Positions 45,677 to 63,550 of a stretch of 64,000 nt of DNA are shown here, one piece after another. Made by a program: the position numbers and the translations under genes. Origin of the DNA: an uncultured Chthonomonadaceae bacterium (lineage in GTDB: Bacteria; Armatimonadota; Chthonomonadetes; Chthonomonadales; Chthonomonadaceae); NCBI GenBank assembly GCA_963835065.1, contig CAWIEK010000049.1:384001-448000 (forward strand), read 5' to 3'. Below the pieces are notes generated by a model. It saw nothing but the letters and a program-made list of their open reading frames with translations, had not been told where the DNA came from and did no database searches. Position 1 is the stretch's first letter, and each line of letters opens with the position of its first letter.

Positions 45677-45916
45677 GGGGTTTTTGTGTTCTGCTCAAAG
45701 CGTTTGTTGCTCACAAGGCAACAAACGCTTTTTGGTGTCAATGTCCTTGAATTATTGCCGTATGCAGAGGCGTGAAAAAGAAAAAGAAAAATTCTTTACT
45801 TGCGGTGCAACTAACTGTTGCGCAATCCAATCAATGAGTGTGAAGGACGCGGAATACACAACGATACGAACCAGCCGCGCCCACCAAGCAATTTTCAGAA
45901 ACAAGGCAACCACCTG

Positions 45917-46096
45917 ATGTTTGAAGCGAACCTACAACCGCAGACAACGCGCCGCAACGATTGGCAACCGCAACCCACTTTTCCGAGTTGCGATGGTCAG
46001 ATACGCTTTATTGGCCTATGTCAAAATACTGCCGCCTGCCTGCGCAATAATCGCAATAATCGTAAACGCCCCAATGGGACAGGAGGAAACGCTTAA
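45917..46096 (+). CDS. Putative leader peptide (59 aa) of the tRNA array
   Basis: ATG 45917, weak AAGG SD; ends ...LRNNRNNRKRPNGTGGNA*; last codons form the antiterminator arm. Confidence 0.5.
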   Translation: MFEANLQPQTTRRNDWQPQPTFPSCDGQIRFIGLCQNTAACLRNNRNNRKRPNGTGGNA

Positions 46097-46167
46097 CCCG
46101 TTTCCTCAGCCAGCGAAAACTCTTCGCCCACTGTCCCAACAATAACCGGCGCAGTGGGCTTTTGTAT
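46075..46167 (+). terminator. Attenuator: intrinsic terminator with competing antiterminator
   Basis: Terminator GCCCACTG(46126-33)/CAGTGGGC(46152-59)+TTTTGTAT; alternative helix TGGGACAG(46075-82)/CTGTCCCA(46131-38). Confidence 0.65.
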
Positions 46168-46274
46168 GCCTAAAATGCTCGTTTGTTCGGTGTTATATTG
46201 GTGTTCGGTATTCAGGTGTTCAGGCAATGCCTCTTCTCTAATGCCTAATACCTAATATCTAATGCCTTGTCCCT

Positions 46275-46346
46275 GCGCTCGTGGTGTACCGGTCAACATG
46301 CCTGCCTGTCGAGCAGAAGAAGCGAGTTCAATTCTCGTCGAGCGCG
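46275..46346 (+). tRNA. trnD: tRNA-Asp(GTC)
   Basis: Cloverleaf; acceptor GCGCTCG/CGAGCGC; loop CTGTCGA; G73; no CCA. Confidence 0.85.
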
Positions 46347-46388
46347 TGAAGTTAGTTGATAGTAAATAGTTGATAGTTGATAGGCCAT

Positions 46389-46463
46389 GCCCTTGTAGCT
46401 CAGCGGATTCAGAGCATCGGGTTGCGATCTCGAAGGTCACAGGTTCGATCCCTGTCAGGGGTA
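46389..46463 (+). tRNA. trnR: tRNA-Arg(GCG)
   Basis: Stem TCGGG/CTCGA, loop TTGCGAT; GGTTCGAT T-arm. Confidence 0.85.
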
Positions 46464-46515
46464 TTGGGTTCGTTTTGCACCTTGATAACTGCATAGTGAA
46501 CATTGTGTCTTGTTT

Positions 46516-46588
46516 GCGTCGGTGCCCGAACGGTTAAGGGAGCGGTCTGCAAAGCCGTATTGTGTCGGTTCAACTCCGACCCGGCGCT
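46516..46588 (+). tRNA. trnC: tRNA-Cys(GCA)
   Basis: Loop CTGCAAA; U73. Confidence 0.88.
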
Positions 46589-46672
46589 TGAAGGGAGTTG
46601 ATAGTTTTTAGTTGATAGTTGATAGACACGCGCTTTCCTATCAACTATGGACTATCAACTATCAACTGCTTC

Positions 46673-46745
46673 GGAAGCGTAACTCAACGGTTAGAGTATT
46701 CGCCTTTTAAGCGAAGGGCTGGAGGTTCAAATCCTCTCGCTTCCA
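46673..46745 (+). tRNA. trnK: tRNA-Lys(TTT)
   Basis: Stem TTCGC/GCGAA, loop CTTTTAA. Confidence 0.9.
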
Positions 46746-46867
46746 TGAGGAACGGTGTTCAGGTATTCAGGTGTTCGGTGTTCAGGTTAAATACCTGCTC
46801 AGGCGCGCTAACTTGTAGAAAAGTATTTCCGAACACCTGAATACCCGAATACCTGAATACCGAATGA

Positions 46868-46939
46868 AGGGGTGTAGTTCAACGGGAGAACGATGGCTTC
46901 CAATACCATCTGTTGCGGGTTCAACTCCTGCCGCCCCTG
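46868..46939 (+). tRNA. trnW: tRNA-Trp(CCA)
   Basis: Acceptor AGGGGTG/CGCCCCT, loop TTCCAAT, G73; C31-A39 mismatch. Confidence 0.8.
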
Positions 46940-46964
46940 TTTACGAAAAAGTGAGTTGCACAGC

Positions 46965-47038
46965 GCCGACCTAGCCCAATTGGTAGAGGCCGTTGGTTCA
47001 GAACTAACGGGTTGGGGGTTCGATTCCCCCGGTCGGCA
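46965..47038 (+). tRNA. trnL: tRNA-Leu(CAG) with short variable loop
   Basis: Stem GTTGG/CTAAC, loop TTCAGAA; Leu-type D-arm; 5-nt variable region; A73. Confidence 0.82.
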
Positions 47039-47141
47039 TTAGGAGAGAGGTCAGGATTCAGGGGTCAGGGGTCAGTCACGACTTTCTGCCGGCAGGAACA
47101 CAGACTTTGGAATTGGGAGGGAACAGCAAGTAGGAAAGTAT

Positions 47142-47213
47142 GCCGACGTAGCTCAGTGGGAGAGCAGCTGTTTCGTAAACAGCAGGTCAGCGGTTCGAAT
47201 CCGCTCGTCGGCT
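47142..47213 (+). tRNA. trnT: tRNA-Thr(CGT)
   Basis: Stem GCTGT/ACAGC, loop TTCGTAA. Confidence 0.92.
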
Positions 47214-47225
47214 TGGGCGTACAAA

Positions 47226-47296
47226 CGGGGTGTAGTGAAACGGAATAACGGCTTGCTTGGGACAAGCTATTACAGGTTCAATTCCTGTTACCCCGA
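47226..47296 (+). tRNA. trnP: tRNA-Pro(TGG)
   Basis: C1-G72, A73; stem GCTTG/CAAGC, loop CTTGGGA. Confidence 0.85.
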
Positions 47297-47314
47297 TGAT
47301 TTCGTGTGTGCTGC

Positions 47315-47386
47315 GCGGGGGTCCTCTAACGGTTAGGAGACGTCTCTTTCAAGGACAAAACGCGGGTTCGACTCCCGTCCTCCGTA
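47315..47386 (+). tRNA. trnE: tRNA-Glu(TTC)
   Basis: Loop CTTTCAA; Glu-type D-arm; GGTTCGACT. Confidence 0.8.
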
Positions 47387-47469
47387 TGAGAAGAGGTTGA
47401 GGGTTGAGGGTTGAGAGTACCGGCAACGGCTACTTCTCTCATTCTCCACTCTCCACTTTCACTCAGTTT

Positions 47470-47543
47470 GCGCGAGTAGCTCAATCCGGTGGAGCGAACG
47501 CCTTACAAGCGAGGGGCTGCGGGTTCAAATCCTGCCTTGCGCA
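47470..47543 (+). tRNA. trnV: tRNA-Val(TAC)
   Basis: Loop CTTACAA; weak top of anticodon stem. Confidence 0.8.
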
Positions 47544-47564
47544 TTTAGTATGAGAATATAGTTT

Positions 47565-47637
47565 GCCTCCGAGGTCAATTGGAAAAGGCGTCACGCTTCG
47601 AACGTGGATACAGCAGGTTCGATTCCTGCCGGGGGCA
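47565..47637 (+). tRNA. trnR: tRNA-Arg(TCG)
   Basis: Stem TCACG/CGTGG, loop CTTCGAA; A instead of U at position 8. Confidence 0.78.
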
Positions 47638-47734
47638 TGGGTAGGGAGTAGGATGTGGGGAGTGGGGAGTAGGAAAAACAGGATATTACAGTACAGGTCT
47701 ACTCCCTACTGCCTACTCCCTAACCCCTATATTT

Positions 47735-47807
47735 GCAAGAGTGGCGCAATTGGTAGCGCGTTTCACTGCCGTCGAAATGGTTGCGGGTTCGACTCCCGTC
47801 TCTTGCA
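47735..47807 (+). tRNA. trnG: tRNA-Gly(GCC)
   Basis: Acceptor GCAAGAG/CTCTTGC, loop CTGCCGT; A73. Confidence 0.82.
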
Positions 47808-47846
47808 TGAATTGTGTTGAGCCTTGTGTTTGGATGGTCTGCATTG

Positions 47847-47921
47847 GCCGGGCTAGCTCATGCTGGTTTGAGCGCACTTCTTATAAAGGTGAGGACGTGG
47901 GTTCAATTCCCATGCCCGGTA
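47847..47921 (+). tRNA. trnI: tRNA-Ile(TAT)
   Basis: Stem CACTT/AGGTG, loop CTTATAA; A73. Confidence 0.85.
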
Positions 47922-47952
47922 TGAAGATGCAAAGATGGTACGGCGTTTCTGA

Positions 47953-48024
47953 TCCCCTGTAGCTCAATGGTGGAGCGTTCGGCTGTTAACCGAAGGGTTG
48001 CTGGTTCGAGTCCAGCCGGGGGAG
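47953..48024 (+). tRNA. trnN: tRNA-Asn(GTT)
   Basis: U1-A72, G73; loop CTGTTAA. Confidence 0.92.
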
Positions 48025-48029
48025 TTTGC

Positions 48030-48100
48030 GCACCTGTCGCTTAATGGGAAAGCCCACTCCTGATAAGGGTGTCACGAAGGTTCGATTCCTTCCGGGTGCA
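48030..48100 (+). tRNA. trnI: tRNA-Ile(GAT)
   Basis: Stem CACTC/GGGTG, loop CTGATAA. Confidence 0.85.
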
Positions 48101-48214
48101 TGGGAATAGGGTTTTAAGGTTTTAGGGTTGTATGGTTTCAGGTGTTGGGGAATAAGTATTTGGGGAACGGTGAAGGGCGCGAGTTGTGGTTACGGATAGG
48201 TTTGAAGGGGATGC

Positions 48215-48286
48215 GCCGCAGTAGCTCAGTGGTAGAGCGCCATGCTGAAAACGTGGACGTCGTCCGTTCAACTCGGACTTGCGGCA
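48215..48286 (+). tRNA. trnF: tRNA-Phe(GAA), integration target (contains attL)
   Basis: Stem CCATG/CGTGG, loop CTGAAAA. Confidence 0.9.
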
Positions 48287-48402
48287 TTGTTAGGGTTGTG
48301 CGTAGGTAGAGTACCCGCTCCTACCTGTGCGCGTTGCGGGTTTAAGCCGTGTCTCTACCCCGCCATGTTGCTGTCATTAAGCACTCTGAAAGGACAGCAA
48401 CC

Positions 48403-49398
48403 ATGCTTCTTTACACCCTGATTGGCGACTATCTGCAAGCCCTGCGCGTGGAACAAGGCGCGGCGGCGACCACGCAGAAAGGCTATACCGCCCAAATTCG
48501 CCACTTCCACACCTGGCTGACAGCAAACGGCTACCCGGAACCGATACTTGCCGACTTCAACGCGCCCGTTTGCCGCCGCTTCCTGTACTATTTGAGCGGC
48601 AAAGGTTTGAGGCCGCGCAGCATCCGTTCGTACTTCCACCCCCTCAAAGGCTTCGGCGAATTCCTTATCCGCAACGGCGTTCTTACCGACAATCCGGCAA
48701 AGACTGTCACCCTCCCGAAGAAGGACGCCGCCCTACGCAAGACGATCACGGACGAAGAAATCGCCCTCCTGCTGGACGCCTGCCACCGCAACCGCAACCC
48801 GCGCCGCGTGGCGTTGTGTCGCGCTGTTTTGTCTGTTCTGGTCTATGGAGGCTTGCGCCGCTCGGAACTGTGCGATCTGCGCCTGGAGGATGTGACGCTT
48901 CCCGACCCGAAGGACAACAAGAGCAAGGGCAGCCTACTTGTGCGTTGTGGCAAAGGCAGCAAGAGCCGTCGTATCTACCTGCCCGAGGAAGCCCTAACCG
49001 CGCTGAAAGAATGGCTGGCGCTGCGTCCGAAGAACTGCAAGCATCCCTATCTGTTCGTCTATGACGTGAACCGCCGACTTGGACATACAAGCCTGCAAAT
49101 GCTTGTGGAGGATGTGAAACATCAAGCCGGACTTGCGGGGCATGACAACATCAAGCCCCATTCGATACGTCACTGGCGGGCAACCGACCTGCTACGGAGT
49201 GGCGCCAACATTCGGGACGTGCAGGCGTTTCTAGGCCACAGCAGCCTGACGGTTACGGCTATCTACTGCCATTCGTCGGAGGAGCAACTAAGGAACATCA
49301 GCGAACTGACGAACCTGCACAGCCAAACGCAGTCGCCGCCCGATCCACGCCTCGACCGGCAGGACGCGCGCCCCCGCTTGCGCCGGATTGCCCGCTGA
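48403..49398 (+). CDS. int: Tyrosine recombinase / integrase
   Basis: GGLRRSEL, GKGSKSR, HSIRH, LGHS, TAIY catalytic set; adjacent to attL. Confidence 0.93.
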   Translation: MLLYTLIGDYLQALRVEQGAAATTQKGYTAQIRHFHTWLTANGYPEPILADFNAPVCRRFLYYLSGKGLRPRSIRSYFHPLKGFGEFLIRNGVLTDNPAKTVTLPKKDAALRKTITDEEIALLLDACHRNRNPRRVALCRAVLSVLVYGGLRRSELCDLRLEDVTLPDPKDNKSKGSLLVRCGKGSKSRRIYLPEEALTALKEWLALRPKNCKHPYLFVYDVNRRLGHTSLQMLVEDVKHQAGLAGHDNIKPHSIRHWRATDLLRSGANIRDVQAFLGHSSLTVTAIYCHSSEEQLRNISELTNLHSQTQSPPDPRLDRQDARPRLRRIAR

Positions 49399-49427
49399 AA
49401 AAGCAGACACCCGTATGCTTATTGGGG

Positions 49428-49472
49428 TAAAATAAGGGCAGGGTTCTTTGCGGGAACCCTGCCCTTATTTTA
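49428..49472. terminator. Strong hairpin / bidirectional terminator after the integrase
   Basis: 19-bp IR TAAAATAAGGGCAGGGTTC / GAACCCTGCCCTTATTTTA. Confidence 0.75.
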
Positions 49473-49560
49473 GTGCCGTGTGCAGGCGAATGAAGCGATT
49501 AACACCCTCATTCTACCCGCATCCCGGCGCACTCGTCAACACTCGACGGAGGTTTGCGCT

Positions 49561-50625
49561 ATGTTCTACTCCAAAAAAGCCAAAGCCACTTTGGACCGCA
49601 TCAAGTATTTCCAGACGAAGAAACAGGAAGGCTACGCCCGACGGCAAAAACTGCTTGCACCAGACAGACTACCGACAAGCACACCTGATGCTGTCGCACA
49701 AGCGCACATTGACCAGCGCGGTATTTACTTTGAAAACAGGATTCTTTTTTGGGAATGGTTTATCCAAACGGAAATCCACTTTGATCTGGAAACTGGAACG
49801 TTCACCTGTCCTATCGTTACTCCCCTTTTGGTACATGCTTGCGCGAACGCGGGGGAAATTCTACACATGTCTTATGCAGAGTATCGCGCCTACCGGCAAA
49901 TCGTGGAGGCTCCGCCGCACCATACATTGGCGAAGAAGTTTAACAGAGCGATGAAAGCGGCAATGGATGCCTCCGATGCCGCCAGTGAGCAACTCGTCTT
50001 TCAACAGATGTACGCAATAACCGAAGCCCTGTCTAAGCAGCACCCAGCATACAAGCCGACGCATGAAATCGAACATGACGCCTTAACTGGATGGATTGCG
50101 TCTCAAAAGGAACGATGGCATGTTCCGAGAGTAAACCGCCAACGCCCCGCGAACTTGGAAGCCGAAGTCCTGGAAGAAATGCGGAGCAGTGTCTTCCAGA
50201 TGCAACCGCGCGATCTACCTTTCTTTCCTGTCGCATTTGGTGAACCTTCCTTTATCAACCTGCCTACTCTTGTACGTGGAAGTGTGGCGAAGACTAACCA
50301 ATCAGACGAAGATAAGTGGAAAGATCATAATCCCGCGACACAGGCAAAATTGCGCGAAATGACAGAGCCGGCAGATGAAACGGAAGAAGTTCGGCTCCGT
50401 ATCGGGAACCGTCAAGCGTTTGAGGCTTTGCGGCCTCACGCGAGACTTAATCGGCGTGAGAATGAGTACTTTACCTGTTTGCTGGAAAACCCGGAACTCT
50501 ACTTCAATTCTTATGGCGGCAATCTGGCCGTGTCTAAGCGGTTGGGATGGACACCTGAGAATGTGCGCCGGGTGAAAAGTGATTGCCTTGCCAAACTCAC
50601 TGCCGCCGCGCAAAAGCATCCGTAG
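49561..50625 (+). CDS. Hypothetical protein with C-terminal sigma-region-4-like HTH
   Basis: GGAGG SD; LNRRENEYF...AVSKRLGWTPENVRRVKSDCLAKL. Confidence 0.6.
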   Translation: MFYSKKAKATLDRIKYFQTKKQEGYARRQKLLAPDRLPTSTPDAVAQAHIDQRGIYFENRILFWEWFIQTEIHFDLETGTFTCPIVTPLLVHACANAGEILHMSYAEYRAYRQIVEAPPHHTLAKKFNRAMKAAMDASDAASEQLVFQQMYAITEALSKQHPAYKPTHEIEHDALTGWIASQKERWHVPRVNRQRPANLEAEVLEEMRSSVFQMQPRDLPFFPVAFGEPSFINLPTLVRGSVAKTNQSDEDKWKDHNPATQAKLREMTEPADETEEVRLRIGNRQAFEALRPHARLNRRENEYFTCLLENPELYFNSYGGNLAVSKRLGWTPENVRRVKSDCLAKLTAAAQKHP

Positions 50626-50712
50626 CCGCAACAAACTTTTCCAAATATTTTTTCAGAAAGTTCTCACACTTGCCCCCTCCTCGCCGCCTACTGGTGAAGG
50701 AGGGATTTTTTT

Positions 50713-50913
50713 ATGCCAGCTATGCTACCGACACGCCGACTGGTTTGCATTTACGAGGGCAATCTTATCGGCCAGATGCAGCTTCTCGCAACTTCTTGCG
50801 ACCCGGAACTTATTACCATCGCCATGCAGAAGATGTTGCCCCATACGAACAGGCCAATGCGCAGGCCGCGAACCCGCAAACGCCGAGGCAAAGAAAATGG
50901 CCGGAATTGTTGA
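50713..50913 (+). CDS. Small hypothetical protein
   Basis: GGAGG SD, basic C-terminus, in the rightward operon. Confidence 0.45.
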   Translation: MPAMLPTRRLVCIYEGNLIGQMQLLATSCDPELITIAMQKMLPHTNRPMRRPRTRKRRGKENGRNC

Positions 50914-50989
50914 CAGCAATTCCGGCCAAGCAGAACGGACACAAACACGAGACAAACGGCCTTTGGACAAAGGCAAATTGAGGTGAACC

Positions 50990-51610
50990 ATGAACATTAT
51001 GACTGACAAGTGTGCCCTTGTCAACACGCCCCCGACCCGCAATATACGGCGGGACATTACCACTCCTCCGACGCACGTAGCGAAACCGGAAAGCGTCATT
51101 TTGCAGGCTTCTGCCGCCCATATCGAAACGGCGCGCGTCCTTGCGGGTATGCGTACATCGCTGCACGACGGACGGCGCAAGCCGCATGAAGATTTAGGCG
51201 CGGATGCCAACCGTGAGGCCGATTATGTGGGACTTCTCGCCGAATTGACGATCCTGATCGCGCTCATCGGCGCAGGCTTTCGCCCCACCCAATTTACGCT
51301 GTTGGCAAACCCGACGCCAAGCGGTCCCGACTTCGCTCTGAACGGCAAAACCTTCAATGTCAAGGCGTTGCCGATGGGCAAGCGCTTTCTGTGTGTCAAC
51401 GAACGTCAGCGCATCGATCCGCGCCAGCATAGCGATTTTTACTTGCCCATGCAGTTCTTGACGTCAACAACCTTACGCGTATTGAAGCCAATTGAGGCCG
51501 CTGCTGTTGCCACCTGGCCGTTGCGTGAAATGCACAGCGCCTACCGCTCGACAGACATTGCGGCCCTTTCCGCCTTGCACGATTTGAAGGAGGTGGCGCA
51601 ATGCCGGTAA
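50990..51610 (+). CDS. Hypothetical protein, PD-(D/E)XK-like fold
   Basis: GLLAE...GPDFALNGKTFNVK pattern. Confidence 0.55.
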   Translation: MNIMTDKCALVNTPPTRNIRRDITTPPTHVAKPESVILQASAAHIETARVLAGMRTSLHDGRRKPHEDLGADANREADYVGLLAELTILIALIGAGFRPTQFTLLANPTPSGPDFALNGKTFNVKALPMGKRFLCVNERQRIDPRQHSDFYLPMQFLTSTTLRVLKPIEAAAVATWPLREMHSAYRSTDIAALSALHDLKEVAQCR

Positions 51611-51879
51611 AATTCCCCTTCGGCAAATTCAACGGCGTGGCCGTTGATAACATTCCGTCGTGGTACTTGACGTGGGCACTGAGCAACCTGACTGACCTGG
51701 ACACCGCGCTGCGTGACGACATGCAGCGCGTATTGCAGCAGCGGAAACCAGTACGCAAGCCCGCCCCACAAAAGCCTGTCTCTCGTAAGCCCGTTGGGAA
51801 GCGACAGGGCCAGCCCTCAAAACCAACCCCGGAAGCAATTCAGGCATCCATTCGCTTAATGAAGAAGGGAGGCGCGTAA
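51601..51879 (+). CDS. DUF3820 / ExoX-C-terminal-like small protein
   Basis: FPFGKFNG..VDNIPSWYLTW. Confidence 0.7.
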   Translation: MPVKFPFGKFNGVAVDNIPSWYLTWALSNLTDLDTALRDDMQRVLQQRKPVRKPAPQKPVSRKPVGKRQGQPSKPTPEAIQASIRLMKKGGA

Positions 51880-53544
51880 ATGGCAACCCTCCTTATGGAC
51901 GCCGTGAGCAAGCTGCGCGCTGAACCCGATCCTAATCACCCCGGCGATTTTCTGGCGGACTGCCCGGACTGCTGCCAGCGCGCGCTGCAATTGTGCAAGG
52001 ACGCCGAAAGCAATCTTGCCGCCTACTGCCCGAACTGCGGCAAAGGCGCCGGTCCCAAGTTTCGCAAGATGTTTCCCACAATGCCGTCCCTTCCCAAGCC
52101 CTTACCGCGCTCGACGCCTGACCCGCCACCGGCAGAAGCGGAATTGAACCGAGAACTGGCCGGCCTGCCTACAACCGATATGGGCAATGCCGAGCGACTG
52201 GTGAAACGCTTCGGCGCGGACTTGCGCTTCTGCCATAGTTTCGGAAAGTGGCTGATATGGGACGGCAAGCGCTGGAAGCCCGACGACAGCAGCGCGGCCA
52301 TTCGCCTGGCAAAGCGGACGGTACGCCTGATCCACGCGGAAATTGCCAGCATTGACGTGACGGATACGGACTCGGATAAAGCAATGGTAAAGGCGCTCAC
52401 GGCTCACGCGAAGAAGAGCGAGGCGAAAGAACGGCTGATGGCAATGCTGAAACTGGCGGAAAGCGAGGCGGAAGTTTCTGTCACCAGTGACGCGCTCGAC
52501 GCCGACGAGTGGCTGCTGAATGTCGCCAATGGAACGCTCGACTTGCGCACTGGAACCCTGCACCCGCATGTTCGGGCGGACCTGATTACTAAATGCACTC
52601 CCATCCATTATGCCCCGGTGACGTGTCCCTTGTGGACGAAGTTCTTAACCCGCGTAATCCCCGATGAAGCCGTACGCGACTATGTACAGCGCGCGTGTGG
52701 CTATGCCCTGACAGGGCGCACGTCGGCGCAGTGCGTGTTCTTCTTGTATGGCAACGGCAAGAACGGCAAGTCCGTGTTCACGGGCGTATTAGAACACTTG
52801 CTTGCCGAGTATTGGGGCAAGACGCGGGCAGAAACCTTGATGCAAAAACGCGATCAAGGCAATATCCCTAACGATGTGGCCGCGCTGCGCGGGTTGCGCC
52901 TGTGTACCGTGAGTGAAATCAACAACGGCCAGCGCCTGAACGAAGCCCTGATTAAAGACTTGACCGGCGGCGATACGCTGTCTGCCCGCTTTCTGCATCA
53001 GGAGTTTTTCAACTTCAAACCACAGTTCAAATTGTGGCTATACGGAAACCACAAGCCCGAAGTGAAAGGCACAGACGAAGGTATCTGGCGGCGGCTGCGC
53101 TTGATCCCCTTCAATGTGACCATCAGCGAGGAGGAGAAAGATACGGAACTGCCGGAGAAGCTGCGCGGCGAACTGTCGGGCATTCTTGCCTGGGCGGTAC
53201 GTGGGTGCATGGAGTGGCAGCGCGTGGGACTGGCCGAGCCGGAACCAGTCCGTCAGGCGACGCAAGCCTATCGGCATGAAATGGACAACACCGCGCAATT
53301 TCTGGCAGAGCGCTGCACAGATGCGCCGGACGAATGGGGCTTCTGCGCTGAATTTGGCGGCAATCTGTACGAGGCGTATGAGACGTGGTGCAAGCTAACC
53401 GGCGAACACGCCTGCACCAAACGCGCGTTTGGGGATATGTTGACGAAGAAAGGGTATGCGAAGAAGCGCAACGCCAAAGGGCAGCAGTATACCGGAATCC
53501 GGCTGTTGTCCGAGTCGGAAATGCAGGCAAGCGCCTGTGTATAG
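51880..53544 (+). CDS. P4-family / D5-like SF3 helicase with N-terminal Zn finger
   Basis: TDMGNAERL, LNVANGTLDL, YGNGKNGKS Walker A, IKDLTGGD..ARFL, DEGIWRRL. Confidence 0.93.
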   Translation: MATLLMDAVSKLRAEPDPNHPGDFLADCPDCCQRALQLCKDAESNLAAYCPNCGKGAGPKFRKMFPTMPSLPKPLPRSTPDPPPAEAELNRELAGLPTTDMGNAERLVKRFGADLRFCHSFGKWLIWDGKRWKPDDSSAAIRLAKRTVRLIHAEIASIDVTDTDSDKAMVKALTAHAKKSEAKERLMAMLKLAESEAEVSVTSDALDADEWLLNVANGTLDLRTGTLHPHVRADLITKCTPIHYAPVTCPLWTKFLTRVIPDEAVRDYVQRACGYALTGRTSAQCVFFLYGNGKNGKSVFTGVLEHLLAEYWGKTRAETLMQKRDQGNIPNDVAALRGLRLCTVSEINNGQRLNEALIKDLTGGDTLSARFLHQEFFNFKPQFKLWLYGNHKPEVKGTDEGIWRRLRLIPFNVTISEEEKDTELPEKLRGELSGILAWAVRGCMEWQRVGLAEPEPVRQATQAYRHEMDNTAQFLAERCTDAPDEWGFCAEFGGNLYEAYETWCKLTGEHACTKRAFGDMLTKKGYAKKRNAKGQQYTGIRLLSESEMQASACV

Positions 53545-53644
53545 TCAGGGCGTTGTGTATAGTCGTGTATAGTGTGCGGAGGTTTTTTGTTTCAGCGCGT
53601 CTCGTGAAGTGAAAAACATGCACTAACTATACACGACTATACAC
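53537..53644. repeat. Iteron cluster, putative replication origin
   Basis: GTGTATAGT at 53537, 53555, 53565; inverted ACTATACAC at 53626, 53636 (perfect 19-bp IR). Confidence 0.75.
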
Positions 53645-53772
53645 ACCCTACACAGAACACCGTTCTTTTGGGCAAAGAGAAGGCAGATGCCGCCCATCTA
53701 CAAAACATACGGACGTGGGTACATCAGGCACTTGAGGCCGAACTGATGCAGGGAGAACAAAGCAAATTTAGT

Positions 53773-54348
53773 TTAGCGGATACGGCGGAAATATGACAGC
53801 TCCCTGTTGAACTCTCGCAGGGTAAGTACTTGCCCGTCCGCGCTGACTTCAAAAGGCCAGGCCGTTGTGTCTCTTTCAATAAACTCCGCTTGTTGCACGG
53901 AAGGAGGGCCAACCAGCAGTTTGTCACCGGAGACATGGTACTCCCTTATTATGGTAGTCATACCTATAGGGGGTACAAACTCCTCTTTGCTTTGGACAGG
54001 TTCTTGGTAGGACAAAGTATGCTCATTAAAAGTGAGCATATTGTCAAAGACAAAGTTACTTTGTGACGTACTTATCCATACACCTATCAATCTATTCTGT
54101 GATGAGTGAGAGCGCATGAAGAACCATACCGAACCAATTCCCAGAACCACCAAGAGGACGCATAGTGGCTTTAGAAAACCTATCGCGCGAATGGTGGTTG
54201 GCTGTGTTGGTCTTTGATCGGGCGTTAGCATTTGCGTAGGAGGCGAGGCCGGAGGCGCGGTGAACACCGTTCGGTACTGGTGTCCGCATTGCGCACAGTG
54301 CGGAGCGTCGAGGGGAGCAGGGGTAGCGCAACGGGGACATTGTTTCAT
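53773..54348 (-). CDS. Zinc-ribbon membrane-anchored protein
   Basis: CPRC...CAQC, Pro linker, one TM helix. Confidence 0.7.
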   Translation of the reverse strand: MKQCPRCATPAPLDAPHCAQCGHQYRTVFTAPPASPPTQMLTPDQRPTQPTTIRAIGFLKPLCVLLVVLGIGSVWFFMRSHSSQNRLIGVWISTSQSNFVFDNMLTFNEHTLSYQEPVQSKEEFVPPIGMTTIIREYHVSGDKLLVGPPSVQQAEFIERDTTAWPFEVSADGQVLTLREFNRELSYFRRIR

Positions 54349-54476
54349 GGTTTGCTTCTCCTGATGGGACTAAAAGGGCTTCACCAGATGCTCAAGCCTG
54401 TCTGTAATTGGGTTGGTGGTTCAGATTTCATAAAAGCAGTATAGCACAGGCGTCAAGCCCGACAAACATATACATG

Positions 54477-54496
54477 TGTACACAATCTTGTGTACA
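54477..54496. promoter_or_regulatory. Palindromic operator-like site in a divergent intergenic region
   Basis: TGTACACAA-TC-TTGTGTACA perfect. Confidence 0.55.
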
Positions 54497-54512
54497 GAAA
54501 GCAGGTCACCGA

Positions 54513-54872
54513 ATGGCAGAATACCCCGTTTTTGATGCCGCAGGCTTCCGGCGTTTTGTGGAGCAGGATGGCCCCATCATCCACGACGCCATTCACAACC
54601 TGAACAATGTGGGCGAACAGCTGCAGGCCGCGCTGCAAGCCGCGCCCGCGTTGCTGGAAGGACGAACGCCACAAACGGCGAACCGGTGTGCCGACTATTT
54701 GCAGCAGATCGCCGTGACGTTGGCAGCGATCCAGCACGGATTGCTTGTTCTTGACCGCGACTTGGGCAGCATCGGCCTGGGTGTCAATCACGCGGCATTG
54801 GGACTGAGAAGCGAAGCCTTGCAAGCGGCACAGGCGCAACTACGACAACCGAAAGGACGGAGGACACGCTAA
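54513..54872 (+). CDS. Helical hypothetical protein coupled (TAATG) to the next gene
   Basis: 119 aa, amphipathic helices. Confidence 0.6.
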   Translation: MAEYPVFDAAGFRRFVEQDGPIIHDAIHNLNNVGEQLQAALQAAPALLEGRTPQTANRCADYLQQIAVTLAAIQHGLLVLDRDLGSIGLGVNHAALGLRSEALQAAQAQLRQPKGRRTR

Positions 54873-57142
54873 TGGCAGGCGAGAAAACCATGTTAGGCGT
54901 GGATGTGAATGTCGCGGCTCCCAACGCGCGGGAGTTGTTCGGCGACTTGCTGCGATGGGTGGAACAACTCAAGCAGGCCGCCAATGTGCAGATCAACATT
55001 GGCGTACCGGGCAATGTGGGCGCGGGAACCGGCGCGGGCGGCGCGGCGCAGGCGGTACGCAACTCCACGCAGGCCGGCAGTCCGGGCGGCAGTGGGTGGA
55101 GTCCTGCGGGGATGTACACCGGTGCGCCTGCCGCCATGAACAACAGCCAGCGGGCGTATGATGCGGCAAAGGGCGTAGGCTTTCAGGGCAGTTACAACGA
55201 GTGGAAGCAAGCGGAGTTTGAACAGGGGCAGGGACGGCGGCAATCGGCGGCGGAGCGCGAAAACGAACGTCGGCAGCAGCAGGCAGACTGGGCGCACGAC
55301 AACGGGATCAAGCGCCAGCAGGCGGATGAAGCGTGGCTGCTTAGAGACCGGGATCGTGGTCTCAAGCAAATGGACGCCGACTATGCGTGGCTGGACAAGC
55401 AGGACGCGGTTGCCGCCAAAGCCCGCGTTCCCTTCTCGGACGGACTTGGCAACCGGATGCGGCAGGGCTTCAATGTCCTCAACCCGATGGCCGCCAACAA
55501 CGACCTATACACGCGCGGCCAGCAGCGGTATGCTGCGCAAGCGGTGGTTGGACTCGCTACGCACACTATCGGAGGTGAACTGTCGCTGTATGCCAACAAC
55601 ACGGCCACTGGCGATTACAACCCCATGCAGGCGGCAGGACTGGCCGGCGCCGCCGCCGGTGGCTTTCTCGGACTGGCGGCAGGTGCGATAATCGGCTCCG
55701 TTGCGCCGGTTCCACAGCCAGGACTCGGCGCACTCATTGGGATGCAGGGCGGCATGACGACCGGAAGCGCGTATGCGCAGTCTGTCATGGCTCCCTTTAT
55801 GCGGACGCACAGTATGGCGCTGACGCTCTCGTCGATTGCCGCGCGCGAAGGCCGCAATGTCTACGACATGATCGGCGGGCATCACCACCGGATCGACACG
55901 CAGACCAGCGGATTGCAGCATCTGTCCGAAGAAATCAGTTTTCACGGCAAGACTGACCGTGAAATCTTAGGGATTAAGGCAGGACTCTACACCGGCACGG
56001 ACATTATCAGTGGGCCACAACTGGCGCAAACGTATGCCACGCTTGGCAGTGGCCTGCTGGCGGCGGGCAACGATCCGCGCCGCGCCTACGATTTATCGGC
56101 GAACTTAGCACGAAAGTACGGGCAGGCTGCGCCGCAGATGGCGACAATGGCGGCAGGCGTGATTGCGCAGACCGCGAAGTGGGGTGATAATCGGGGCGAC
56201 CTGATGCTGGCAACAGGACCGGAAGCCTTTGGGGCGTATGCGGACGCGACGGGCAAACCCGACTTCACGAAAGAACAACTGCAAGGCTATGGCGACGTGC
56301 AGCGCGCCGACTACCAGATGCAGGTAGCGGAGACAAACCCGCGCGGGCGGGGACAGGCCAAGCAAATCGTGTACGACGCGAAACTGAAAGCCCTGACGCC
56401 CTTTGGAACGGACACGTTGGCGTATCGGCAGGCGCAACAAGGCCGACGGCAAGCGGTATTGCAGGGCTACGAGGAACGCGACATTACCGCCTACGATATT
56501 CCGATGGCGGGACTGGAAGCCGAAGAACGCATCCATCAGGCCTTACCCTATCAGCCGGGCTACAACTATGGCGCGGCTTTAGAGCGCATGGGACTGCGGG
56601 CGAACCAGTTGAACACCGTCGGCAAGCGGTATCAATCCCTCATGGCAAAGGGACAGCTAAGCGAAGAAGAACAGAAGGCCACGTACAGCCAGTACCAGGG
56701 GATGCGGGTCGCGCAGGCGCAGGACGTGGCGGTTCTGGCGGAAGGCGGCGAAGACCGGGCGATGCTCCTCGCGGCAGGACGGGGTAACAGCCATAACCGC
56801 TACGACAGCGAACAGCAGGCGTCTATGGCGGTCTTCAACATCGGCCACCCAAGAAGAAGTCACGGCGCGATCAATGGGCAGCAACTTGCCATGCAGAACG
56901 CTTTCCTGCACAAGTACGATACGCCCGACTTCGATGCCGCCGGCGCGGCGATGCCGAAGGATAGAATGACAGGGATGGACTCTACGCAGGTCGTGGGCTT
57001 GCTGTCGCGCATTGCCGAAGCCGTCGAAAGCCGGGGCAAAGGCATGGGCAGCAGCGTCAATCCGGGTGAGGCGCGCGGCATGGTGACGGGGGCGCTTGCG
57101 CTCACTGATATTCTTGGTATGCCCCCGAAGAACACGAACTAA
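54872..57142 (+). CDS. Tail tape-measure-like protein
   Basis: 756 aa, Ala/Gly/Gln-rich and helical; GAAAGGFLGLAAGAIIGSVAP..GLGALIG glycine-zipper. Confidence 0.55.
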   Translation: MAGEKTMLGVDVNVAAPNARELFGDLLRWVEQLKQAANVQINIGVPGNVGAGTGAGGAAQAVRNSTQAGSPGGSGWSPAGMYTGAPAAMNNSQRAYDAAKGVGFQGSYNEWKQAEFEQGQGRRQSAAERENERRQQQADWAHDNGIKRQQADEAWLLRDRDRGLKQMDADYAWLDKQDAVAAKARVPFSDGLGNRMRQGFNVLNPMAANNDLYTRGQQRYAAQAVVGLATHTIGGELSLYANNTATGDYNPMQAAGLAGAAAGGFLGLAAGAIIGSVAPVPQPGLGALIGMQGGMTTGSAYAQSVMAPFMRTHSMALTLSSIAAREGRNVYDMIGGHHHRIDTQTSGLQHLSEEISFHGKTDREILGIKAGLYTGTDIISGPQLAQTYATLGSGLLAAGNDPRRAYDLSANLARKYGQAAPQMATMAAGVIAQTAKWGDNRGDLMLATGPEAFGAYADATGKPDFTKEQLQGYGDVQRADYQMQVAETNPRGRGQAKQIVYDAKLKALTPFGTDTLAYRQAQQGRRQAVLQGYEERDITAYDIPMAGLEAEERIHQALPYQPGYNYGAALERMGLRANQLNTVGKRYQSLMAKGQLSEEEQKATYSQYQGMRVAQAQDVAVLAEGGEDRAMLLAAGRGNSHNRYDSEQQASMAVFNIGHPRRSHGAINGQQLAMQNAFLHKYDTPDFDAAGAAMPKDRMTGMDSTQVVGLLSRIAEAVESRGKGMGSSVNPGEARGMVTGALALTDILGMPPKNTN

Positions 57143-57417
57143 TGCAGGGGGAAGCGGGAACCTTGCGGGTTTGTGCGCTTCTCCTGCCATTGCTGTAGGA
57201 GCGCGGCAAATTCGGGAGACTCATACGCCAATGCCTGCGTTGCCAGGTGAATATCCCGAATTTCCATCATCTTGAACACAAGGGCGTCGGAGGCTTCGCG
57301 CCCTTGTATCCTACCTTCGGAAGCGTCCTGCGCCAGTTGTTGAAAGTCATCGTAGAGCGCGACCGTCTGTGCCATCAATTGTTCAAACTTCGCTTTCAGT
57401 TCTCGTTCTAAATCCAT
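57139..57417 (-). CDS. Small helical hypothetical protein
   Basis: GGAGGT SD; 92 aa. Confidence 0.6.
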   Translation of the reverse strand: MDLERELKAKFEQLMAQTVALYDDFQQLAQDASEGRIQGREASDALVFKMMEIRDIHLATQALAYESPEFAALLQQWQEKRTNPQGSRFPLH

Positions 57418-57638
57418 AGCAGCACCTCCGGCTTATGCCAATGTTAGATTTTCGCCCGTCCTGTACAGTCGTATCTTGGCAGGACAGGCAATTTATCGTG
57501 TACTTCTCCCGAGTTTTTGTGCCTTCTGGCACGGTTCGCACGGTTGTCTTTTTCTACACTCCCCGCCGCCACAACGCGCCGGAAACGTCGTATTTCCTCC
57601 CGGCACAACGTTCGGCACAATTTGTGCCAGTTTGGACA

Positions 57639-57944
57639 CTACAACGCTTGACGAAGGGCGCGCAGGGCGGCTTCCACGCGGGCGCGCATAGCGGCGTCGA
57701 GGGTGAGGGCGTCGAGTTGGGGCGTGACCTTGTTCCAAAAGTCGCGCTGTGCGTAGGGGCAGCGGGTGCGCGTGGCCTGGACACTGCCCAGATACTTCAC
57801 GACGCGCTGGCGGGGCTTGCCGTGGACGCGCGTGTTCTGCACCAGCACGGCGGAAAGCGTGTCTTTGCAGCCCTTCTCGCCGTTTGGCGTGGCGGCGCTC
57901 CACGTTTGGCGCGTTCCCTGTCTGTGTTTCCAACGAATGTACAT
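57639..57944 (-). CDS. Hypothetical protein (beta-hairpin GKPRQRVVKYLG)
   Basis: AAGGAG SD; resembles the N-terminal domain of IS1634-type transposases and mobile-element small proteins. Confidence 0.6.
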   Translation of the reverse strand: MYIRWKHRQGTRQTWSAATPNGEKGCKDTLSAVLVQNTRVHGKPRQRVVKYLGSVQATRTRCPYAQRDFWNKVTPQLDALTLDAAMRARVEAALRALRQAL

Positions 57945-58054
57945 GCGGTTTCTCCTTTCTGCTTTGCTACTACGGGCAGGTGGAAAGGAGAGGTAATTGC
58001 CCTGTGAACGGCGTAGAGTCGCGCACAGGGCAACGTGATTCGATTACGGCCTAT

Positions 58055-58414
58055 CTACGCGGCCAGCGTGTCCGCGACGTGGGCCAGCACAAGGGTGCAG
58101 CAGGTGTCACTCGCTACCAGCATCTTGCCGGCCAGCGCGCGCACCTTCGCGGCGAAGTCTTCATTTCCAACATGTGGGGCAGAAACACCGTTTTGTACAG
58201 ATGCAGGGCTTTGCGCCCGCGAACAGTTCACCACGCCGAAGTCCGGGAAGTCTTTGCCAACGGTGAACGGGTTGCCGAAGTAACCATCACAGCGCAGGCG
58301 GTCGTCTCTCCTGCCGACAAAGACGTGATCGCTGTATTCCGGCAACTCCTGCCAGCCGTAGGGCAGGCTGGTGAGGTTTACGACGCGGGTTTGCGGGTTC
58401 GTTGCGGTGTGCAT
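58055..58414 (-). CDS. DUF4326-like protein (degenerate)
   Basis: TRVVNL, VFVGRR, YFGNPF, LAGKML. Confidence 0.65.
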   Translation of the reverse strand: MHTATNPQTRVVNLTSLPYGWQELPEYSDHVFVGRRDDRLRCDGYFGNPFTVGKDFPDFGVVNCSRAQSPASVQNGVSAPHVGNEDFAAKVRALAGKMLVASDTCCTLVLAHVADTLAA

Positions 58415-58486
58415 ACTTCTTCTTCTCCTTGTGCAGTGGGGTGTCAGGCCGGGAATGGGTACGGCTCCCGGCAGGCCGTGCGGGTG

Positions 58487-58882
58487 TCAGCGTCGAGTAC
58501 GCTTGTGCGTCATGTGGCGGATAGGTCGGCCTATGAGCGCGTCGGTAGACACAGCGGCTTGCGTGAGCAGGACGGGCGCGGGCGGCGCGTGGTCTACCAG
58601 CAGAGCCGAAGCGTAGTCCAGAAACTCGGCCTGTCGCTCCAGCATCAGCGCGACGGCCTGCTCCTTGTCGTCCGTGTCCGGCTCGGCGGCTCCGACTTCG
58701 ATGAAGGCGTACCCCAGGCGCATGTACAGGCCGTCAAAGAGTGTGTCGTCTTCCACGCGCTTGACGGGCGCGGGCGTGTCTGGCGGTTTGGGCGCGTCGG
58801 GCGTCGGCAGGCAGGGCGCAACCGGATCGTTCCAGTTCGGCTTGGGCGGGCGCGTCGGGCGGGGCAATTGTTTCGTGTGCAT
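58487..58882 (-). CDS. Hypothetical protein
   Basis: AGGAG SD; Pro-rich N-terminus. Confidence 0.55.
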   Translation of the reverse strand: MHTKQLPRPTRPPKPNWNDPVAPCLPTPDAPKPPDTPAPVKRVEDDTLFDGLYMRLGYAFIEVGAAEPDTDDKEQAVALMLERQAEFLDYASALLVDHAPPAPVLLTQAAVSTDALIGRPIRHMTHKRTRR

Positions 58883-59002
58883 GGTTCTTCTTCTCCTGTG
58901 TTGGTGGTAGAATGGAACCGGCAGGGCGTCTCACTTCTTGCCGGTTCGCAGGGTGTCGGGCGTAGGGAAGTTTGCCGCTTTCCTATGCCCGCTTTGTGTG
59001 TC

Positions 59003-59302
59003 TTACAGCGGCGGGCGGGCGGCGTCCTGTCGGTTTAGAATGGCTTCGCTGAACGGCAAGTCCAGTTCGTGCGTCATTTCCTGTTCCCAATAGCGCGTCA
59101 GGACTTTCAGGGCGCTTTTCAAGTCCTTGTGGCGCGTGACGAGTTGGCTCTTGCCCTTGTTGCCAATCATCTTTTGGGTTTGGCTGTGCAGGGCGAGCAA
59201 TTCCTGCGTGTGGGTAATGTCGAGCGCGCAGCGGGTTTGCAGGGCGTCCAGCACGTCTTTGACCGTGACGGTGGCAGGTCGGGGTGGCGCTTGCGTTTTC
59301 AT
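59003..59302 (-). CDS. Hypothetical protein
   Basis: GGAG SD; in the leftward operon. Confidence 0.55.
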   Translation of the reverse strand: MKTQAPPRPATVTVKDVLDALQTRCALDITHTQELLALHSQTQKMIGNKGKSQLVTRHKDLKSALKVLTRYWEQEMTHELDLPFSEAILNRQDAARPPL

Positions 59303-59383
59303 GTTCCGTATTCTCCGTAGGGTTGGTGTTGTGGCAGGGTAGCGAACTGGATACCCTGCCGGGTTGTCTGGCAATGGTGGCGA

Positions 59384-59605
59384 TTAGCCGCGCGGTTTCA
59401 TGCGGCCTTTGCGCGTCAGGGCTTTGGCGAAGTTGCAGGCCATGTGCCGGCCTGCGCTGTCGGTGCAGTCGTAGCGTTTCACGATGCTTTCAATCGCCGC
59501 GTGAAAGCCTGCCGAACATTCGTCTTTGGTGAACTGGTGGCGGCGGGCGTCGTGTCCGGGCTGGAACGCGCCGGGGTTCGTTTTGCGCGTGGTCTGCATC
59601 AGCAT
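59384..59605 (-). CDS. Small hypothetical protein
   Basis: AAGGA SD; GAFQPGHD..RH.FT..EC..G motif. Confidence 0.55.
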   Translation of the reverse strand: MLMQTTRKTNPGAFQPGHDARRHQFTKDECSAGFHAAIESIVKRYDCTDSAGRHMACNFAKALTRKGRMKPRG

Positions 59606-59715
59606 TGCTTTGGTTCCTTATCGGGTAGAATCGGAACCGGGAGGGCTGGTCAAGTTTTCCCGGTTCCGGGCTTAGGGAGTGTTGACGCACTTCCTAAGCC
59701 CTTCCTTGTTGGTGG

Positions 59716-60384
59716 TTACAGCGTCACCTTGTCGGCGGGCTGTAAGTCCAGACGGTTGCACAGTTCTTTGCCCCAGTATTCGCCAATGACGAGCAGGGCG
59801 GTTTCCAGTTGGCACACGCGCCTATCGCGGCTATCCTTCACGCCGATTTTGTACACGGATGCGAGTTCGCGGGCGGCTTCCAAGTCCTTGACCATGCGAA
59901 CCTGCAAGGCTTCCAGAAGGGCGCGAACCGTCAACACCGTTTCGTCCGGTTCCGGTACGGCGTAGGGCGCGGGCAGGAGACATTCGGGAACGCCTGTCAG
60001 CAAACGTTCGCGTTCGCCGTCCCACTCTTTGCAGTAGGCGTCAAGGGCGGATACTTCTTCTTCAACGGTCAACGTCAACGCCTGCTGCGCGTGTTCGGCC
60101 TGCAAGCGCAGTTCTTCTTTCACCCACAGGATATGCTTGCAAATGTCCCGATGCTTCTGCCAATCTTCACAGGTGCAGCAGGCGGCTTCCACGTTGACCG
60201 TATGAAAGCGATGTTCGGGCGTGTTCACATGGTAGGTATCCGGGAGCGGCGCGTCTTTCAGCGTTGCAACCTCAAAGGTATAGCCCTGCGCGGTCAACTG
60301 CTGCGCTTTTTCCCAACAGCGCGCCAACCTTACAGCCTGCTGCGCGTTGCGCGGTTTGTCGGTGTGCGTGAGTGTGTTCGTCAT
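59716..60384 (-). CDS. SWIM zinc-finger protein
   Basis: CTCEDW......CKHI. Confidence 0.8.
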   Translation of the reverse strand: MTNTLTHTDKPRNAQQAVRLARCWEKAQQLTAQGYTFEVATLKDAPLPDTYHVNTPEHRFHTVNVEAACCTCEDWQKHRDICKHILWVKEELRLQAEHAQQALTLTVEEEVSALDAYCKEWDGERERLLTGVPECLLPAPYAVPEPDETVLTVRALLEALQVRMVKDLEAARELASVYKIGVKDSRDRRVCQLETALLVIGEYWGKELCNRLDLQPADKVTL

Positions 60385-60545
60385 TGTCGTATCCTTTCGG
60401 GTAGTAGAGTGTGCGTCTTCAGAACGTGCGTTGCGTCATGGCGGCTCTTTCACTTCCCGGCGTTCCTGCTTGATAACAGGTCGAGACTTTAACATCATTC
60501 GGGAAGTCTCTGTATGAAGTTTGTCTGCATCGTTCTTATGTCTCT

Positions 60546-60680
60546 ATTATACACCTATTACGCACCTATAACCAGTAGACAAACAGGTAGACACGAAAAC
60601 TTTCTTGACTTTTTTACACCTATCTGCTATCATTTACACTATAATCAGGTGTGCAACGTCTCACATTTAGGTATCTGATA
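60546..60680. promoter_or_regulatory. Divergent promoters with repeated (A/G)CACCTAT boxes
   Basis: + strand TTGACT(60605)-17-TATCAT(60628) with extended TG; - strand TATAAT at 60546-51; boxes at 60551, 60562, 60616 and inverted partial boxes near 60647, 60668. Confidence 0.65.
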
Positions 60681-60692
60681 GGAGTGTGAACT

Positions 60693-60881
60693 ATGCTGAA
60701 AGAGAATGATCCGCGTTACGCTACACATTTCGCTATGTCGCTGCGTCTCAAACCGGGAACGGGGCAACTGCTGGAAGATATGGCGAAGCAAATGGATACC
60801 AGCAAGACGGCGGTTATCACGCGCGCCCTGCGAGAACTGGCACGGCGGGAAGGTATCGAAGTGAAGGAGGAAACGGCATGA
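60693..60881 (+). CDS. Ribbon-helix-helix (CopG-like) regulator
   Basis: MSLRL....QLLEDMAKQMDTSKTAVITRAL. Confidence 0.82.
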   Translation: MLKENDPRYATHFAMSLRLKPGTGQLLEDMAKQMDTSKTAVITRALRELARREGIEVKEETA

Positions 60882-61102
60882 GTGATAAAGACTTCATCGA
60901 ACAGGTACGCCGCAGGGCGATTGACGTAGCCGCCCTGATCGGCGCAAAGCAGTACGACGCGGCAGGCATTGCGGCCTTGACGCTTGCCAGTGACGCCGCC
61001 GCGCACAATGGACAGTACGCCATGCGGCAGGAACAGGCACACAGCGACGCCTACAAGCTGAACACGCTCACCGTACACCTTGACGCCGCCGCGCCGGAGT
61101 AA
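60878..61102 (+). CDS. Small hypothetical protein coupled to the RHH gene
   Basis: ATGA overlap, AGGAGG SD. Confidence 0.6.
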   Translation: MSDKDFIEQVRRRAIDVAALIGAKQYDAAGIAALTLASDAAAHNGQYAMRQEQAHSDAYKLNTLTVHLDAAAPE

Positions 61103-61541
61103 GAACGCAACGCCTGATTAGCCACGCCACGCCGCAAACGCGCTGTACGGGCCACGTGAAGTCACGGCGATGCCTTCGCGTGGGGAATGTCTGATATTAT
61201 CCGAGGGGGTGTCTTCTGCCGAAGCCGAACCCTCCCGAACACCAGAACACAAAAAAAGACGCCGGAACAATATTGTGCGGGCAGACGCACAATCGTTTGG
61301 GGTATCGCAACTGATTACTGTTCCCCTGCTGGTTTGGCCTGTTTGCTTGTGGGAGTACGTAGGAGTGTGTAGAGGCAGGGGAGAAGTCTCATCGTTCCCC
61401 TGTTTCCCAACACGGTGTAAAGACGGCAAGGCTGTCACTCATACGGCGGACGCAACAATGAGAAGATGACTGTGGAATGTCCAAACTGTGGCTACTTCTT
61501 GCAGCCGTAAACCATTGACAAGAACGCAAAGGTGTTGTCAC

Positions 61542-63489: not shown

Positions 63490-63550
63490 CAGTGGTAGAG
63501 CGCCATGCTGAAAACGTGGACGTCGTCCGTTCAACTCGGACCTGCGGCAT
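63490..63550 (+). repeat. attR: 3' 61 bp of tRNA-Phe
   Basis: 60/61 identical to 48227-48287. Confidence 0.95.

Follow-up and report, generated by a model that had tools for sequence, protein, structure and literature searches.

A candidate ribosome-coupled attenuator in the leader of a reserve tRNA array of an Armatimonadota bacterium

In the leader-peptide attenuators of the trp, his, leu, and ilv operons, a leader ORF overlaps the antiterminator strand and the alternative hairpins are mutually exclusive. In T-box riboswitches, control by terminator and antiterminator is tied to translation supply. The actinobacterial whiB7 (wblC) attenuator is described as having a long, sequence-variable uORF that senses translation stress broadly, with a compositional bias; efficient translation of this uORF leads to an intrinsic terminator, and stalling or loss of the start leads to antitermination (PMC10274678). 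In the antibiotic-responsive regulators vmlR, mef/mel, and toiL, the uORF is likewise a multi-purpose sensor of ribosome stalling, there controlling protein-coding genes, in the case of toiL via translation attenuation and Rho (PMC12121999).

Long tRNA arrays were long thought to be cryptic, and Anabaena provides one worked-out case, in which translation stress acts via a cyanobacterial repressor (PMC8421152, PMC10272220). In Anabaena, translational stress induces both rtcB and the L-array (PMC8421152), and the trn operon is controlled at the level of initiation by the repressor TrcR on direct repeats over the -10 and the transcription start, TrcR being described as confined to cyanobacteria plus two cyanophages (PMC8421152, PMC10272220). 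In the main texts of these two papers, the strings "attenuat" and "leader" do not occur. Within the literature that we searched (titles and abstract openings of the top matches), no leader-ORF attenuator for tRNA genes was found.

The leader described herein has a short ORF that overlaps one strand of an antiterminator, and this antiterminator and an intrinsic terminator are mutually exclusive, as in the trp, his, leu, and ilv leaders. Unlike those, it has no conserved run of codons for one amino acid, is about 60 codons long, precedes tRNA genes, and pairs the end of its ORF directly with the terminator arm, across a hairpin that holds the stop codon. With whiB7, it shares the long and variable uORF and, as proposed here, a broad sensing of translation stress; the output, however, is non-coding tRNA instead of a transcription factor, and the bias is toward ATA, AAT, and CGC instead of Ala, with five Ala in 59 codons; no homology is claimed (PMC10274678). 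The T-box also differs, as the switch here is overlapped by an ORF and Rfam returned only tRNA matches at the gathering threshold in the window, with no match to its cis-regulatory models, riboswitch or T-box. The tRNA genes resemble the Anabaena trn operon in that they form a long array without periodicity that adds supernumerary tRNAs, and they may likewise have a patchy distribution owing to horizontal transfer; the proposed control is attenuation instead of repression of initiation (PMC8421152, PMC10272220). This likeness also draws on an HNH-like ORF in a related array (motif recognized by eye) and on related leaders upstream of RNA-repair and SPFH genes. We consider the leader to be probably a ribosome-coupled transcription attenuator of the whiB7/trp type that gates reserve tRNAs.

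The leader and the array

The window is the whole stretch of DNA analysed, 64,000 nt in length (positions 384001-448000 of contig C49 of the source genome, G000). By sequence check, every element of the leader named in an earlier note on this DNA was present where it had been placed (Table 1).

Table 1. Features of the leader, the tRNA array, and its surroundings, in window coordinates
Feature	Position	Strand	Remarks
Putative ECF-type promoter, TGCAAC-N18-ATCAA	45806..45834	+	Block conserved in G000, G001, and G002
Conserved 15-nt block at inferred transcription start	45838..45852	+	Identical in three genomes
Leader ORF (uORF)	45917..46096	+	59 codons plus TAA; no Pfam match
ATA-CGC codon pair, candidate sensing site	46001..46006	+	ATA at same codon in G002
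Arg-Asn-Asn run, CGC-AAT-AAT-CGC-AAT-AAT-CGT-AAA-CGC	46043..46069	+	Specific to G000; not in G001 or G002
Antiterminator helix P1	46075..46138	+	TGGGACAG (46075-82) with CTGTCCCA (46131-38); encloses P2 and P3
P2, stop-codon hairpin	46083-46107	+	Inside P1; stop (46094-96) in loop
P3, second hairpin	46113-46127	+	Inside P1
Intrinsic terminator	46126..46163	+	Stem 46126-33/46152-59, TTTT 46160-63; mutually exclusive with P1
Conserved box right after terminator, boxA-like	46174..46185	+	Kept in three genomes
Array of 16 tRNA genes (Asp to Phe)	46274..48286	+	ARAGORN, Rfam
tRNA-Ile(UAU)	47847-47921	+	Inside array
Integrated element, about 15 kb, at tRNA-Phe	48349..63549	+	Tyrosine integrase, D5-like primase (Pfam); splits array
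tRNA-Ser(GCU), displaced array tail	63633..63719	+	Follows Phe in G001 and G002 too

The Shine-Dalgarno sequence of the leader ORF is weak, and its rare codons are one ATA (46001-46003) and two CTA. P1 and the terminator have positions 46131-33 and beyond in common. The terminator has a loop of 18 nt and a short U-tract of four contiguous U, and a consensus scan of the window made no terminator call there; the first tRNA of the array (Asp) begins at 46274. We take the conserved box after the terminator to be boxA-like, as we do a motif at 46477-46493, between tRNA-Arg and tRNA-Cys. The latter motif also occurs in G002, and was not found in G001.

The array itself is a long, non-periodic, same-strand set of supernumerary tRNAs, as in the description of L-arrays (PMC8421152). 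Its earlier description as a reserve set fits, since G000 has a further, scattered copy for 16 of the 17 anticodons of the array, Ile(UAU) being the sole one without another copy in the assembly. Among the 41 genomes searched, the same array occurred only in two genomes of the same genus, G001 and G002, although tRNA arrays often fail to assemble. The order of the genes is the same in G002 and, apart from one extra Glu, in G001, whose array has 23 tRNA genes compared with 16 plus one in G000. The 3' part of tRNA-Phe is duplicated at 63479-63549, at the far end of the integrated element, and G002 carries a related integrase and a smaller insert at the same tRNA-Phe. ARAGORN and Rfam place two further tRNAs at 63479-63719.

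Some smaller features were also noticed between the tRNA genes. Tandem repeats of 7-8 nt, arranged in inverted pairs (46200-46270, 46350-46385, 46820-46865, and others), are very common across G000. Within the G001 array lies the HNH-like ORF mentioned above, which encodes 148 aa (L032:4263-4800, minus strand) and has four homologues elsewhere in G000, one of them on contig C11 between tRNA-Arg and tRNA-Ser.

Conservation, folding, and the promoter

When the 900 nt upstream of the array were aligned among G000, G001, and G002, the conserved islands were the promoter-like block (45804-45852), the start of the ORF, and the attenuator core, the leaders otherwise diverging. The ATG, the frame, the stop codon in its loop, P1, and the terminator are kept in all three genomes, with ORFs of 59 (window), 59 (G002), and 56 (G001) codons ending in G-T-G-G-N-A, G-T-G-G-D-A, and G-T-G-D-T-G, respectively, and in each the stop lies 17 nt 3' of the GGAC of the antiterminator strand. 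The other two reading frames of the leader are not conserved. Because open frames this long arise in 6.5-10.6% of shuffles of any single leader, the ORF is convincing only through its conservation. Between the window and G002, 24 codons are identical, 4 differ synonymously, and 31 non-synonymously; the chance that the ORF would stay open under random substitution is 16-22%, which is modest evidence by itself. A functional leader peptide was ruled out: 4 synonymous changes were found compared with 7.7 expected at random, and the peptide is therefore not under selection. The leader is real and conserved, and its elements and their mutual exclusivity are kept without conservation of the peptide.

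Over four aligned cores, 96% of the P1 cells are paired, with a few compensatory changes, and over four aligned sequences 100% of the terminator cells are paired, with one compensatory change. Covariation, which the earlier note had suggested as a check, was not significant, as 52 (P1) and 113 (terminator) of 500 shuffles scored as high. In the minimum free energy structure of 46040-46180, the antiterminator is present together with the two hairpins inside it (z = -3.74; none of 200 shuffles was as stable), and the duplex of the ORF end with the terminator arm has -19.0 kcal, compared with a shuffle mean of -11.5 (p 0.010).

The effect of a ribosome was modeled at equilibrium by beginning the fold 15 nt beyond the codon that it occupies. 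In the window and in G002, the probability of the terminator is 1.0 from codon 50 onward, that is, once the ribosome covers P1. Before codon 50, the probability of the antiterminator is 0.01-0.53 in the window (0.96 with the whole leader free); in G002 it reaches 0.98, and in G001 and G271 it stays close to 0. Without a ribosome, the terminator is favored at equilibrium in the window (0.89-0.99 in the local fold) and in G001, G102, and G271 (1.0). Since equilibrium often favors the terminator even when no ribosome is present, the switch would have to be kinetic. Known attenuators work by an early helix that forms before the 3' arm of the terminator and persists. In all eight leaders compared, a fold of the nascent RNA up to the terminator loop gives P1.

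In the mechanism that we infer, transcription would start at the putative ECF-type promoter at 45806 and the leader ORF would be translated. A ribosome reaching the stop codon would cover the end of the ORF and free the terminator, so that transcription would end near 46163. If the ribosome were stalled or absent, P1 would form first—being complete before the 3' arm of the terminator is made, and having to persist—and RNA polymerase would read into the spare tRNA array. As input, any stalling before about codon 49 would probably do, whether caused by an antibiotic, by tRNA damage, or by starvation. There may be a bias to AUA, which the one unique tRNA of the array decodes. If true, a cis-encoded ribosome sensor would be a second and host-independent solution to the control of such arrays, able to travel with them, its feedback loop would be closed, with poor decoding giving more tRNA, and its signal could be directly tested with a 350-nt reporter.

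The promoter label, which presumably holds for this site, rests on the consensus of such promoters and on the distribution of sites in the genome. TGCAAC-N18-RTCWA has 20 sites in G000, 16 of them outside long ORFs; with five other spacings there are 3-10 sites, of which 3-5 are outside. At 45806 the -10 element begins with A; in the remaining 15 intergenic sites it begins with G. TGCAAC sites lie upstream of an ECF sigma gene and of the Ro60 operons of four relatives, and also upstream of an rpoB-like gene and of a vWA/Ro60-like operon (both recognized by eye, the latter without a Pfam match). G000 has an ECF sigma factor at C49:157109-157678. The promoter block was present in 3 of 42 genomes of the family, and the 15-nt block at the putative transcription start is the only exact match among the 27 sites in G000 with up to 2 mismatches. 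In G102 and G271, sigma-70-like promoters are found instead.

On the 3' side of the terminator, the window has an extended -10-like motif (TGnTATATT, 46191-46199) and G001 a sigma-70-like pair (TTGACT-N16-TACTTT). Together with the conserved box at this place and with the four leaders in which equilibrium favors the terminator, they would suit a leader made as a short RNA of its own that stops at a constitutive terminator, the array having its own promoter after 46167. We consider this unlikely. The two promoter-like motifs are weak and non-conserved, differ from each other, and are both missing in G002, and the consensus scan of the window called none. In five related clusters (G016, G020, G055, G056, and G102), only 13-27 nt separate the terminator from the first tRNA, and a promoter of the array's own would leave P1 and the fixed position of the stop codon unexplained.

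Codon content and the possible signal

The earlier note had pointed out the Arg-Asn-Asn run and suggested Asn/Arg starvation as a check; as a sensor of Asn or Arg, the run would make the leader a trp/his-type attenuator specific for shortage of these amino acids. The run does sit just 5' of P1; the leader ORF has 9 Asn codons, compared with 3.5 expected; and in eight leaders that precede tRNA-Ile(UAU), AAT occurs 20 times (7.3 expected) and CGC 22 times (12.5 expected). However, the run is absent from both homologues, where Asn codons number 1 (G001) and 4 (G002), and at codons 50-51, where the run ends, a ribosome would already cover the antiterminator strand, so that a stall there would favor termination. 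The controlled genes, moreover, are tRNAs that serve many amino acids, not the biosynthesis genes of one. By this codon-run test the leader is not of the trp/his type, and specific sensing of Asn or Arg is quite unlikely. What stood of the earlier proposal is the geometry and logic of an attenuator, conserved in G001 and G002 and recurring in leaders of unrelated sequence; its amino-acid-specific part did not. The leaders may have a looser Asn/Arg/Ile codon bias. A sensor of all amino acids was ruled out as well, as the ORF contains 17 of the 20, no more than expected (P 0.72 when compared with proteome windows, 0.96 with shuffled ORFs).

ATA is present in all eight leaders before tRNA-Ile(UAU) (4.7 expected, P 0.007), 16 times in total, compared with 6.4 expected. 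It makes up 16 of their 26 Ile codons, compared with 12% in the long ORFs of G000, whose codon usage was applied to all eight. With one leader per lineage, P is 0.01, a value that would fail a correction for 61 codons. ATA adjoins CGN 11 times (1.2 expected), an adjacency that was spotted post hoc. In 12 Ro60 leaders, described below, ATA is not enriched (4 compared with 3.1 expected). Feedback through AUA is thus a lead, not a result. If it operates, failure of lysidine-dependent decoding of AUA would stall the ribosome, and a TilS-independent AUA-reading tRNA would then be transcribed; expression of a tRNA gene would thus depend on how well its own codon is decoded, and the rare bacterial tRNA-Ile(UAU) would have a suggested role.

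Regarding the usual decoding of AUA, TilS was found in 5 of the 5 genomes tested, and the idea that G000 is without the TilS route was not supported, TilS being present. No clear candidate for tRNA-Ile2(CAU) was found in the 92%-complete assembly of G000, in which ARAGORN finds only two CAU tRNAs; incomplete assembly may account for its being missing.

The layout at other loci

To search without bias, tRNA-Ile(UAU) was used as the query in 401 Armatimonadota genomes, the attenuator being no part of it. This gave nine matches, one of which is not a tRNA. Of the eight real loci, seven (G000, G001, G020, G055, G056, G102, and G112) have a uORF, P1, and a terminator, often in unrelated sequence. 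The exception is G100, where the arrangement differs. Its stand-alone tRNA-Ile(UAU) (L191:6050-6245; about 578050-578245 of G100:C1) has no preceding terminator; a short ORF containing CGA-ATA extends into the tRNA, whose 5' strand pairs with the leader in a helix that includes the ATA. Ribosome-gated control of tRNA folding or processing is possible there.

Eight leaders (the window, G002, G001, G020, G055, G056, G102, and G271) were compared in detail. In each, the end of the ORF pairs with 8-11 nt of the terminator arm and encloses an inner hairpin; the distance from the stop codon to the terminator is 31-35 nt. With G112 (11 nt paired, 40 nt) and the incomplete leader of G016 (29 nt), this distance ranges over 29-40 nt. 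At least 8 nt of pairing together with a duplex at or below -16 kcal was found in seven of the eight leaders plus G112, compared with 15 of 121 ordinary gene-end terminators of G000 lying 20-50 nt from a stop; among these controls, 44 of 121 pair at least 8 nt with the upstream gene end and 21 of 121 lie at 31-35 nt. A first shuffle test, with a 16-nt arm, was negative (p <= 0.05 in 4 of 31 leaders). With the whole 5' half of the terminator, a choice made after the first result and kept in later tests, p was below 0.05 in 5 of 8 leaders, the others being G020 (0.81), G056 (0.29), and G001 (0.074). By kinship the leaders fall into four lineages (3+3+1+1), and the layout is shared by four families whose leaders differ in sequence and use two types of promoter.

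Two of these loci came from other searches. In G271, from another family, the core follows a sigma-70-like promoter, its ORF has 63 codons, and the next gene is an AAA ATPase fragment (family assigned via a full-length homologue); it was found by a pattern that included P1, and its P1 is circular evidence. In G016, a covariance-model match, the core lies directly before tRNA-Asp, a Cys-like tRNA, tRNA-Ile(UAU), tRNA-Tyr, and a TROVE (Ro60) gene, the contig beginning too late to include the start of the ORF. The three-part attenuator pattern matched 22 of 401 genomes, compared with about 32 for a reversed control, and among the loci inspected only G000, G001, and G271 looked real. The promoter-block pattern gave nine stretches in genome contigs, two of them the same-genus arrays, and ten in metagenome contigs, none with tRNAs. 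The covariance model (R1) found G016 as the one new element in 68 genomes of the order and two weak matches without tRNAs in 151 genomes of the phylum; it found none in 30 Ro60 loci or 16 other AAA-ATPase loci, and nothing better than E 0.87 in twenty viral loci. As matches beyond G016 are this scarce, sequence homology is narrow.

The Ro60 genes were surveyed for the same layout. Of 401 genomes, 90 gave a TROVE match, G000 having no Pfam match to it, and 65 upstream regions were examined (56 + 9; three under 250 nt). In 26 of the 65, a terminator precedes the first non-coding RNA mark by at most 700 nt, the other 39 having none by the rule used. In 15 of these 26 leaders, an ATG ORF of 30-70 codons ends 20-50 nt before the terminator, and 12 of the 15 belong to one family. 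When five pre-chosen cases were added, such a uORF was present in 19 of 31 leaders, compared with 2.7 expected from shuffles. On average, pairing with the cognate terminator is strongest 0-12 nt upstream of the stop codon, at -16.5 kcal compared with -10.8 for the terminators of other families; of the 15, two leaders outside the main family, those of G112 and G123, pair weakly. Whether uORF attenuators gate non-coding RNA across the phylum, both reserve tRNA arrays and Ro60/Y-RNA repair operons, with AUA-beside-Arg codons as a feedback sensor before tRNA-Ile(UAU), is a broader idea that we put forward tentatively, as one that may well prove wrong; if true, attenuation would extend to non-coding outputs.

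The peptide without selection, the weak ribosome-binding site, and the two motifs taken for boxA, after the terminator and at 46477, could also be read as a real switch governed by a protein or ligand, or by a processive antitermination complex, with the ORF incidental to it. Leaders of unrelated sequence nevertheless keep an ORF whose stop lies at a fixed distance, uORFs occur far above chance, and no Rfam riboswitch or T-box model matched; we regard an incidental ORF as very unlikely. A reading in which nothing is regulated, and the pairing merely follows from GC-rich hairpins and recent shared ancestry, would agree with the frequent pairing of ordinary terminators and the non-significant covariation, but is highly improbable given that only 15 of the 121 controls combine pairing and duplex strength and that the layout spans four families, different sequences, and two promoter types.

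A few further observations concern RNA repair. The rtcB leaders of G000, G001, G016, G020, and G271 showed no such attenuator by eye. In G000, the rtcB matches are in two pieces (C7:25776-28023; L103, L104) around a 265-aa ORF, possibly an intron-borne endonuclease, and rtcB of G001 is interrupted as well. At L216 (G000:C45:50400-52800, minus strand), a TGCAAC promoter is followed by a small ORF, by apparently circularly permuted tRNA-like RNAs, and by a 484-aa vWA/Ro60-like protein, recognized by eye and without a Pfam match. Family f29 has a conserved uORF of 36-53 codons with a good Shine-Dalgarno sequence, mostly ending around D-G-G and paired to the terminator before Ro60/Y-RNA-like operons (L147, L148, L132, L157, L159, L160, L169, L171, L172, L174, L196, L204, L206, and L208). 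In the upstream regions L125-L154, the Ro60 genes are preceded by several tRNA-like and short RNAs with a common GGGCCG...GGTTATC motif.
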